DNA of 64,000 nucleotides from Patescibacteria group bacterium (GTDB taxonomy: Bacteria > Patescibacteriota > Minisyncoccia > Portnoybacterales > UBA2143): NCBI GenBank assembly GCA_018830295.1, contig JAHJSM010000001.1, forward strand, positions 1,980 through 65,979. The letters are read 5' to 3'. The position numbers were made by a program, and so were the translations under genes. Below the pieces are notes generated by a model that was given only the letters and a program-made list of their open reading frames with translations, ran no database searches and was not told the origin of the DNA. Shown piece after piece: positions 2,384 through 2,420 of this stretch. How positions within the stretch are numbered: the stretch's first letter is position 1; each line of letters starts with the position of its first letter.

Positions 2384-2420
2384 TGTGTGTGTGTGTGTGT
2401 GTGTGTGTGTGTGTGTGTGT
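2384..2420. repeat. (TG)n dinucleotide microsatellite, about 18 units
   Basis: Uninterrupted tgtgtg... from 2384 to 2420, lying intergenic and upstream of the 895-2286 surface-protein gene. Confidence 0.95.

Follow-up and report, generated by a model that had tools for sequence, protein, structure and literature searches.

A strain-variable AC repeat in a short leader ORF upstream of a DGR target gene of Patescibacteria, a candidate for frame-dependent attenuation

What is the role of a long and perfect TG repeat that lies directly ahead of a surface-protein gene in an uncultured Patescibacteria (candidate phyla radiation) bacterium, the host indicated by the source names of identical proteins? 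An earlier note on this DNA had proposed slipped-strand phase variation of the surface protein through a promoter repeat. The region analyzed here, referred to as the window, is a stretch of 64,000 nt. Classical simple-sequence repeat (SSR) contingency loci include the dinucleotide repeats in the 5' coding regions of outer-membrane protein genes of Helicobacter pylori as well as repeats of Neisseria and Haemophilus. As detailed below, the gene that follows the tract is the target of a diversity-generating retroelement (DGR). These systems have been treated as stand-alone diversifiers of ligand-binding proteins, and the regulation of their activity and of their targets is little understood, especially in the uncultured candidate phyla radiation.

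The repeat tract and the variable protein gene

Tandem Repeats Finder identified a perfect (TG)18.5 repeat at 2384-2420 (period 2, 18.5 copies, 100% matches), in agreement with the raw sequence. It is the only dinucleotide repeat of at least 5 units in the 64-kb window. A 14-nt TG pattern had 0 occurrences in 100 dinucleotide-preserving shuffles, and the chance expectation for the tract is 0. Since the local genes are all encoded on the minus strand, as are nearly all genes of the window, the tract is read as (AC)18A. Its distance to the ATG of the minus-strand gene at 895-2286 is 97 nt, so that the perfect tract located about 100 nt upstream of this gene in the earlier note was correctly described. 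In about 280 kb of related, largely non-redundant DNA, 12 non-AT dinucleotide repeats of at least 7 units were found, and all of them are at DGR components: 5 are upstream of the target gene and 7 at the 5' end of the reverse transcriptase (RT) gene.

The description of the gene product as a DUF1566-like membrane-anchored protein also holds, as the 463-aa protein has a C-terminal Pfam Lcl_C (DUF1566) domain and an N-terminal hydrophobic anchor. Contigs that contain the same proteins possess bAvd, GIY-YIG and RVT_1 genes within 3 kb downstream of the Lcl_C gene, and the homologues of the RT are of the DGR type. The window contains three features of this cassette:

1..275, minus strand: 5' part of the DGR accessory gene bAvd (gene neighbourhood in L001)
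888..1030, minus strand: 3'-terminal DGR variable region (VR) of the target gene, matched over 143 nt by the template region (TR)
895..2286, minus strand: 463-aa Lcl_C/DUF1566 protein with N-terminal membrane anchor, the DGR variable (target) protein (Pfam, homologues, gene neighbourhood)

The remaining cassette (GIY-YIG, TR and RT) is beyond the window start and was located on contig L001, where a window position equals 8874 minus the L001 coordinate. The TR is at L001 9453-9595 and adjoins the RT. Of the 21 mismatches between VR and TR, 14 are at TR adenines, and in another strain (strain C, see below) all of the 13 positions that differ between VR and TR are adenines (13/13). Differences in the VR between strains show the same bias, with 18/22, 21/28 and 19/22 at TR adenines, which account for 32% of the template. 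The VR/TR pair and these adenine-biased differences identify the gene 3' of the tract as encoding an actively diversified DGR variable protein, and the strong bias of the between-strain differences indicates that the DGR was active recently. With its adenine-specific TR/VR pair and with bAvd and RT genes beside the target, the cassette resembles other DGRs of the candidate phyla radiation that have Lcl_C/DUF1566 (C-type-lectin-fold) targets. It differs from them in the orientation of the RT gene (L001 9623-10789), which is convergent with the target, Avd, GIY-YIG and TR and is encoded on the other strand.

The cassette is part of an island of about 9-10 kb that comprises the DGR as well as SLFN_AlbA_2 and Big_13 genes. 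This island is bracketed by a direct duplication of 96-97% identity (window 2744-3309 and L016 5701-6130) that consists of a ferredoxin gene together with the 5'-terminal 135 nt of the 133-aa protein gene located upstream of the tract. In relatives with a 61%-identical 133-aa protein, the gene for ribosomal protein L25 directly follows the 133-aa gene, and neither DGR nor repeat is present. Because the duplication brackets the island and the island-free relatives run from the 133-aa gene into L25, the arrangement suggests that the island was gained via homologous recombination inside the 133-aa gene. The idea that the tract represents the island junction was rejected, as the duplication ends at window 2744 and the tract lies about 320 nt farther on, inside island-specific DNA.

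Leader architecture and tract length in strains and orthologous loci

Read on the gene strand, the 133-aa gene (stop at 2472) is followed by the tract (2420-2384), a hairpin with a T-run (2345-2301) and the target ATG (2286). In the earlier note, the terminator was assigned to the preceding gene and the tract to the space between it and the surface-protein gene, but this order is wrong, since the hairpin sits between the tract and the gene. The features of the leader are:

2913..2942, minus strand: nearest predicted gene-strand promoter, GTGGCA-18-TAAAAT with TG extension, upstream of the 133-aa gene (consensus match only)
2472..2873, minus strand: gene of the 133-aa coiled-coil protein, directly upstream of the leader
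2440..2444, minus strand: GAGGG, Shine-Dalgarno-like, 7 nt 5' of the leader ATG (motif match, weak evidence)
2364..2432, minus strand: leader ORF of 22 codons, MSNT(TH)6RSFAIC, with its ATG at 2432, enclosing the entire tract
2384..2420, minus strand: (AC)18A simple-sequence repeat, the hypermutable element (Tandem Repeats Finder and raw sequence)
2301..2345, minus strand: terminator-like stem-loop of 20 pairs including G-U, with a CGGG/CCCG core, followed by T7 (terminator scan and fold)
2321..2323, minus strand: TAA in the hairpin loop, the stop of the leader ORF when n mod 3 = 1, n being the number of repeat units
2296..2298, minus strand: TGA 12 nt 5' of the target ATG, the stop of the leader ORF when n mod 3 = 2

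In the window allele (n = 18), the leader ORF ends at a TAA at 2366-2364, 18 nt 5' of the hairpin, and the distance from the U-run of the hairpin to the target ATG is 16 nt. The AC tract is wholly unpaired in the predicted RNA fold. The hairpin is conserved in the orthologous loci L018 and L051 and in strain C (L054), with 5 pairs changed on both sides in a compensatory manner. A scan of 1800-3200 against Rfam at E-values up to 10 revealed no known RNA family and only sub-threshold eukaryotic miRNA/snoRNA noise on the hairpin. The gap of 39 nt between the stop of the 133-aa gene and the leader ATG holds the GAGGG motif, and the promoter scan of the gene strand predicted no sigma-70-like promoter near the tract or directly upstream of the leader ORF. 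The 133-aa gene is probably co-transcribed with the leader, and its homologues precede the module of repeat and target in L018 and L051.

Shine-Dalgarno motifs were found at 5 of the 59 window genes, compared with a background of 4.7%. Because such motifs occur at background frequency in this genome, the GAGGG provides weak support for translation of the small ORF. Relatives were found to possess compact terminator/promoter units (L007 5402-5490 and L015 550-643), in which a hairpin overlaps TTGACC that is followed by 17 nt, TAGAAT, 6 nt and an ATG. Such units imply leaderless mRNAs in this lineage, many genes of which look leaderless.

Five further assemblies hold the locus. As they consist of assembled contigs only, the comparison of tract lengths is one between strains. 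Comparing lengths between related genomes, as had been suggested, gave n = 9, 10, 18, 18 and at least 15 among the strain haplotypes:

Strain A, window and L001 (ERZ27247117): n = 18
Strain A, L005 (SRR10598174): n of at least 15, as the k=31 contig breaks inside the tract
Strain B, L002 (ERZ27247124) and L006 (JGI Ga0180732): n = 10
Strain C, L054 (JGI 3300013392): n = 18
Strain D, L003 (SRR18052864): n = 9

Strains A, B and D share identical flanks over about 75 nt on the 5' side of the tract and 125 nt on its 3' side, and the hairpin tail of strain C carries three substitutions. The haplotypes diverge by 1-3% in the wider flanks (97-99% identity) and by about 9% in the target gene. Unequal values of n next to near-identical flanks show that the tract length changes on the time scale of strain divergence; the tract is thus hypermutable between strains.

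Orthologues of the target protein with 57-88% identity were retrieved together with their upstream DNA. Five of these loci carry a repeat upstream of the target:

L018, target identity 75%: (AC)7
L051, target identity 63%: (CA)11
L019, target identity 66%: (GA)12
L039, partial target match: (GA)10
L053, target identity 67%: G10

At all six repeat-bearing loci (the window, L018, L051, L019, L039 and L053), an ATG is located 11-29 nt 5' of the repeat and is open into it. A hairpin with a U-run is present 3' of the repeat in L018, L051, L019 and L039. In L053, the gene caller annotated a 42-aa upstream ORF that encloses G10 and whose end is only 3 nt from the target ATG. The upstream genes in L019, L039 and L053 are unrelated, yet a repeat of a different unit is found at the same position. 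Extended -10 elements are present just 5' of the repeat-bearing ORF in L019 and L039. As the target in L019 also has its own GGAG, the hairpin of this locus is in a 5' leader and not behind an upstream gene. Two full-length DGR-linked orthologues (L020 and L052) have no target-side repeat, and such a repeat is hence common but not universal among DGR-linked orthologues. The P0003-type and P0017-type lineages, which have no flanking DGR genes, contain neither repeat nor such a hairpin, but only a plain promoter. Scans of viral contigs with protein patterns and with the RT-side DNA signature gave no matches.

In the P0017 lineage (L042-L050), a plain TGTGATATAAT promoter replaces the leader about 40-60 nt 5' of the target ATG, and a (CT)3 remnant precedes the promoter. 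This lineage has a truncated target orthologue, and the interval from the target to the downstream core genes is free of DGR genes. This leader replacement is consistent with a switch that was lost together with the DGR.

Frame-dependent attenuation and alternative readings

Simulation of the repeat number showed that n mod 3 picks the stop codon of the leader ORF, at -80, -37 or -12 relative to the target ATG:

n mod 3 = 0: stop 18 nt before the hairpin; alleles of the window (n = 18), strain C (18) and strain D (9)
n mod 3 = 1: stop at the TAA in the hairpin loop (2323-2321); allele of strain B (n = 10)
n mod 3 = 2 (n = 8, 11, 14, 17, 20): stop at the TGA at 2298-2296, past both hairpin arms; none among the alleles seen

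The same three frame classes are present in L018 and L051. The L051 allele belongs to the read-through class, its ORF overlapping the target start by way of an ATGA, and the equivalent L018 frame ends at +22.

To our knowledge, the pil1 locus is the one experimentally dissected case of this type, and the attenuator is known from one streptococcus. In pil1 of Streptococcus gallolyticus, GCAGA repeats in a leader-peptide gene set the reading frame (Danne et al. 2014, PMC3894217). Expression is low with the short peptide, whose end is 39 bp ahead of a premature terminator, whereas longer peptides end within or after the hairpin, and the ribosome then blocks terminator formation, causing high expression (PMC3894217). 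The locus described here shares with pil1 a repeat that is wholly within a short leader ORF and whose unit is not a multiple of 3, a stem-loop terminator (here a predicted one) between the leader ORF and the gene for a surface structure, a short frame that stops before the hairpin (by 39 bp in pil1 and by 18 nt here) while the other frames end within or downstream of it, and a repeat number that varies between strains. There are also differences. The repeat is the pentanucleotide GCAGA in pil1 and the dinucleotide (AC)n here, and the controlled gene is a pilus operon there and a DGR variable protein gene here. The present leader is described from sequence, in an uncultured Patescibacteria bacterium in which Shine-Dalgarno motifs are rarely used. 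In addition, the position at which its longest frame ends, beside or across the target start codon, suggests that translational coupling is involved as well.

As the window matches the anatomy of pil1, the same mechanism is proposed here. We regard as evenly balanced the specific proposal that the tract is a contingency repeat in a short leader ORF that gates the DGR variable-protein gene by frame-dependent attenuation. In the short frame, the ribosome would leave ahead of the hairpin, the terminator would form and little target mRNA would be made (low state). In the two longer frames, a translating ribosome would cover the hairpin and permit transcriptional read-through, and in the longest frame translation would also be delivered to the target start codon, with possible translational coupling (high state). 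The window allele, with n = 18, is in the short frame and is predicted to be in the low state; the ON and OFF states of all alleles are predictions of this model. Slippage by one AC unit would switch the lectin-like surface protein randomly on or off, on top of the sequence diversification by the DGR. The broader claim, namely that the tract is a selected contingency repeat tied to a DGR target, appears probable. Among the mechanisms considered, a known kind of control, pil1-type attenuation, in a new setting is the best supported, and it would extend this leader-peptide attenuator to a distant phylum and to dinucleotide repeats. The classical SSR contingency loci likewise have long, perfect repeats that vary between strains, sit at the 5' end of the unit expressing a surface protein and have consequences that depend on the frame; the difference is that the repeat here is in a separate upstream ORF followed by a terminator and not in the structural gene or in a promoter spacer.

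An open frame that reaches the target ATG had also been considered as statistical support and was dropped, as shuffled AT-rich leaders reach the ATG in 21-29% of cases. Because of this frequency, and because the three AC-type loci are homologous, the frame pattern is no independent statistical evidence. Amino-acid attenuation of the his/thr type was rejected as well: although the leader has Thr-His codons, its tract is unpaired and the predicted fold offers no alternative to the hairpin, the downstream gene is surface lectin-like and not biosynthetic, and the leaders of orthologues encode RE repeats or Gly runs.

Several alternatives have to be weighed against frame-dependent attenuation. The tract length may act without translation of the small ORF, as a switch or rheostat that alters the leader or operon-internal RNA or the local DNA structure and thereby tunes read-through; the routes in question are an unstructured CA-rich standby site or enhancer, RNA stability, Rho loading, Z-DNA (AC/TG) and H-DNA (GA/TC). 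We consider this reading unlikely. In its favour, the data on recurrence and polymorphism fit it equally well, and the tract is fully unpaired in the predicted fold. There are precedents for such effects. According to the passage of PMC9031893 that cites Martin-Farmer and Janssen 1999, CA repeats just 3' of a start codon enhance translation in E. coli. In the case of hmw1A of H. influenzae, an intergenic SSR is transcribed within the 5'-UTR and expression depends on RNA structure and processing by RNase III; the heptanucleotide repeats form one arm of a long RNA hairpin that is cleaved by this enzyme, and more repeats gradually lower expression (PMC12721329). The tract described here resembles hmw1A as an intergenic repeat in the leader of an adhesin gene that is proposed to act after transcription initiation, but it is unpaired and the conserved hairpin downstream is separate from it. 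The chemically different repeats at orthologous loci (AC, GA and poly-G) argue against any sequence-specific property of RNA or DNA, and a reading without translation leaves unexplained that an ATG is open into every repeat and that the units are never multiples of three. Z-DNA, to which the earlier note had considered the tract prone, is unneeded to explain the data, and some orthologues have (GA)n or poly-G instead. A neutral microsatellite, which drifts in length within the 3' untranslated part of the upstream operon, before the terminator, and has no effect on the target, is in turn an improbable reading of the tract. The tract does lie where this reading would place it, past the stop of the 133-aa gene and ahead of a terminator-like hairpin, the frame pattern is statistically ordinary, and any repeat of 18 units is unstable in length, functional or not. 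However, long repeats are otherwise absent from the 64 kb of the window and the about 280 kb of relatives, save at DGR components, relatives with the 133-aa gene but without a DGR lack the repeat, and the recurrence of different units at one position in L019, L039 and L053, next to unrelated upstream genes, also argues against neutrality. As a caveat to frame-dependent attenuation itself, the hairpin could simply be the terminator of the upstream operon, with the target driven by a weak promoter that overlaps the U-run. L051 has a plausible TGTTATAAA that is 5 nt from the ATG.

The two remaining alternatives have very little probability. Repeats in promoter spacers are known from Haemophilus hif and Neisseria porA/opc, and by analogy the tract could alter the -35/-10 spacing or the position of an upstream element of the surface-protein gene. 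This promoter-spacer model was rejected on geometry and is highly improbable: the gene strand has no predicted promoter around the tract, the tract of 19-37 nt exceeds any sigma-70 spacer, and the conserved terminator-like hairpin lies between it and the gene, with a U-run only 16 nt from the ATG. In its favour, G10 abuts an extended -10-like TGTTAAAAT in L053, and a spacer mechanism is conceivable in this orthologue. Of the earlier proposal of phase variation, the part that concerns a strain-variable contingency repeat at a surface protein thus stands, and the promoter route fails, as no promoter is predicted around the tract, the hairpin intervenes and the tract is inside a short ORF. Since this ORF has its own ATG, changes in repeat number shift a reading frame and not promoter spacing. 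Phase variation of the surface protein is therefore likely on the sequence evidence, though not through the promoter. Equally remote appears the reading that the product of the small ORF is a functional peptide of Thr-His repeats, such as one that binds metal, and that the repeat only varies its length. An ATG and a Shine-Dalgarno-like motif are present, and (TH)n is encoded in whichever tract frame. The alleles with n = 9, 10 and 18, however, place the C-terminus in different frames, and orthologues encode RE repeats or Gly runs. The peptide similarity between leader ORFs of orthologues follows from their DNA identity, and no conserved peptide is left once this shared identity is discounted.

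The RT-side repeat and other repeats in the window

The RT gene is associated with a repeat of its own. A (CT)14 repeat is located at L001 10801-10828, about 1.9 kb past the window start, and corresponds to (AG)14 on the RT strand. Seven of the 10 related loci that include the 5' end of the RT have an (AG)n repeat with n between 10 and 27 (L019 7170-7193, L022 7744-7765, L025 6680-6711, L026 1140-1193, L031 7013-7056 and L052 4536-4555, in addition to L001). It is part of the open RT frame, codes for Arg-Glu repeats and precedes the conserved F-x-F-x-N-L-L motif by 8-14 codons. Four of the seven loci lack an in-frame start codon in the stretch from repeat to motif, and L001 and L022 offer just a TTG there. 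Of the ATGs nearest upstream of the repeat, only that of L052 (n = 10) shares the RT frame, and the RT ORF called at this locus includes the tract. Overall, some alleles have the repeat in frame, but most readable loci have it out of frame. For the RT of the window cassette, the TTG start at the motif could be used, and its state is ambiguous.

Among the 120 closest RT homologues, 29 have an N-terminal extension with at least 3 Arg-Glu units, which marks in-frame alleles, and the gene calls of 27 are truncated at the N-terminus. A search of representative proteins found an Arg-Glu N-terminus in 1 of 149 more distant DGR RTs, and that one belongs to the same clade, so that Arg-Glu N-termini are confined to a close clade of RTs as judged from these sequences. 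Poly-G tracts are present in Avd-like ORFs of two loci: L027 2610-2620 (11 nt) is inside the ORF and splits the Avd frame, and L022 1122-1131 (10 nt) is at the 3' end.

The RT with (AG)n is a candidate phase-variable reverse transcriptase. A further possibility, which we advance tentatively and with somewhat more doubt than confidence, is phase variation of the DGR system itself in one clade of Patescibacteria, with SSRs gating both the variable-protein gene and the RT (and poly-G in Avd in some loci). If true, a random on/off switch would be layered on a targeted hypermutation machine, and the cells of one population would differ in whether they display the receptor and in whether its diversification is ongoing. 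Phase variation and targeted hypermutation are two classic bet-hedging strategies of bacteria. If slippage gates the variable protein and, separately, the RT, episymbiotic bacteria would unite both in one cassette. Full-text literature searches found no paper that links DGRs to switching by simple-sequence repeats.

Two other repeats of the window may be mentioned. A G9 run at 30301-30309 on the minus strand corresponds to codons 15-17 of a 2175-aa ORF (23823-30351) with an N-terminal hydrophobic segment. With this run, the 5' coding region of a putative giant surface protein also contains a candidate contingency repeat, the second of the window. The other is a GC-rich palindromic element that has 11 sites in the window, usually as a GGGGCTGCCCC / GGGGCAGCCCC pair 18 nt apart, and that gave 42 strand-matches compared with 0.3 expected. 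Its sites are at 7430-7458, 11391-11419, 40971-40999, 41478-41506, 45117-45145, 48281-48309, 53771-53842, 57757-57785, 58086-58114 and 60502-60530. This element looks like a REP-like family of bidirectional terminators and differs strongly from the AT-rich hairpin beside the tract.
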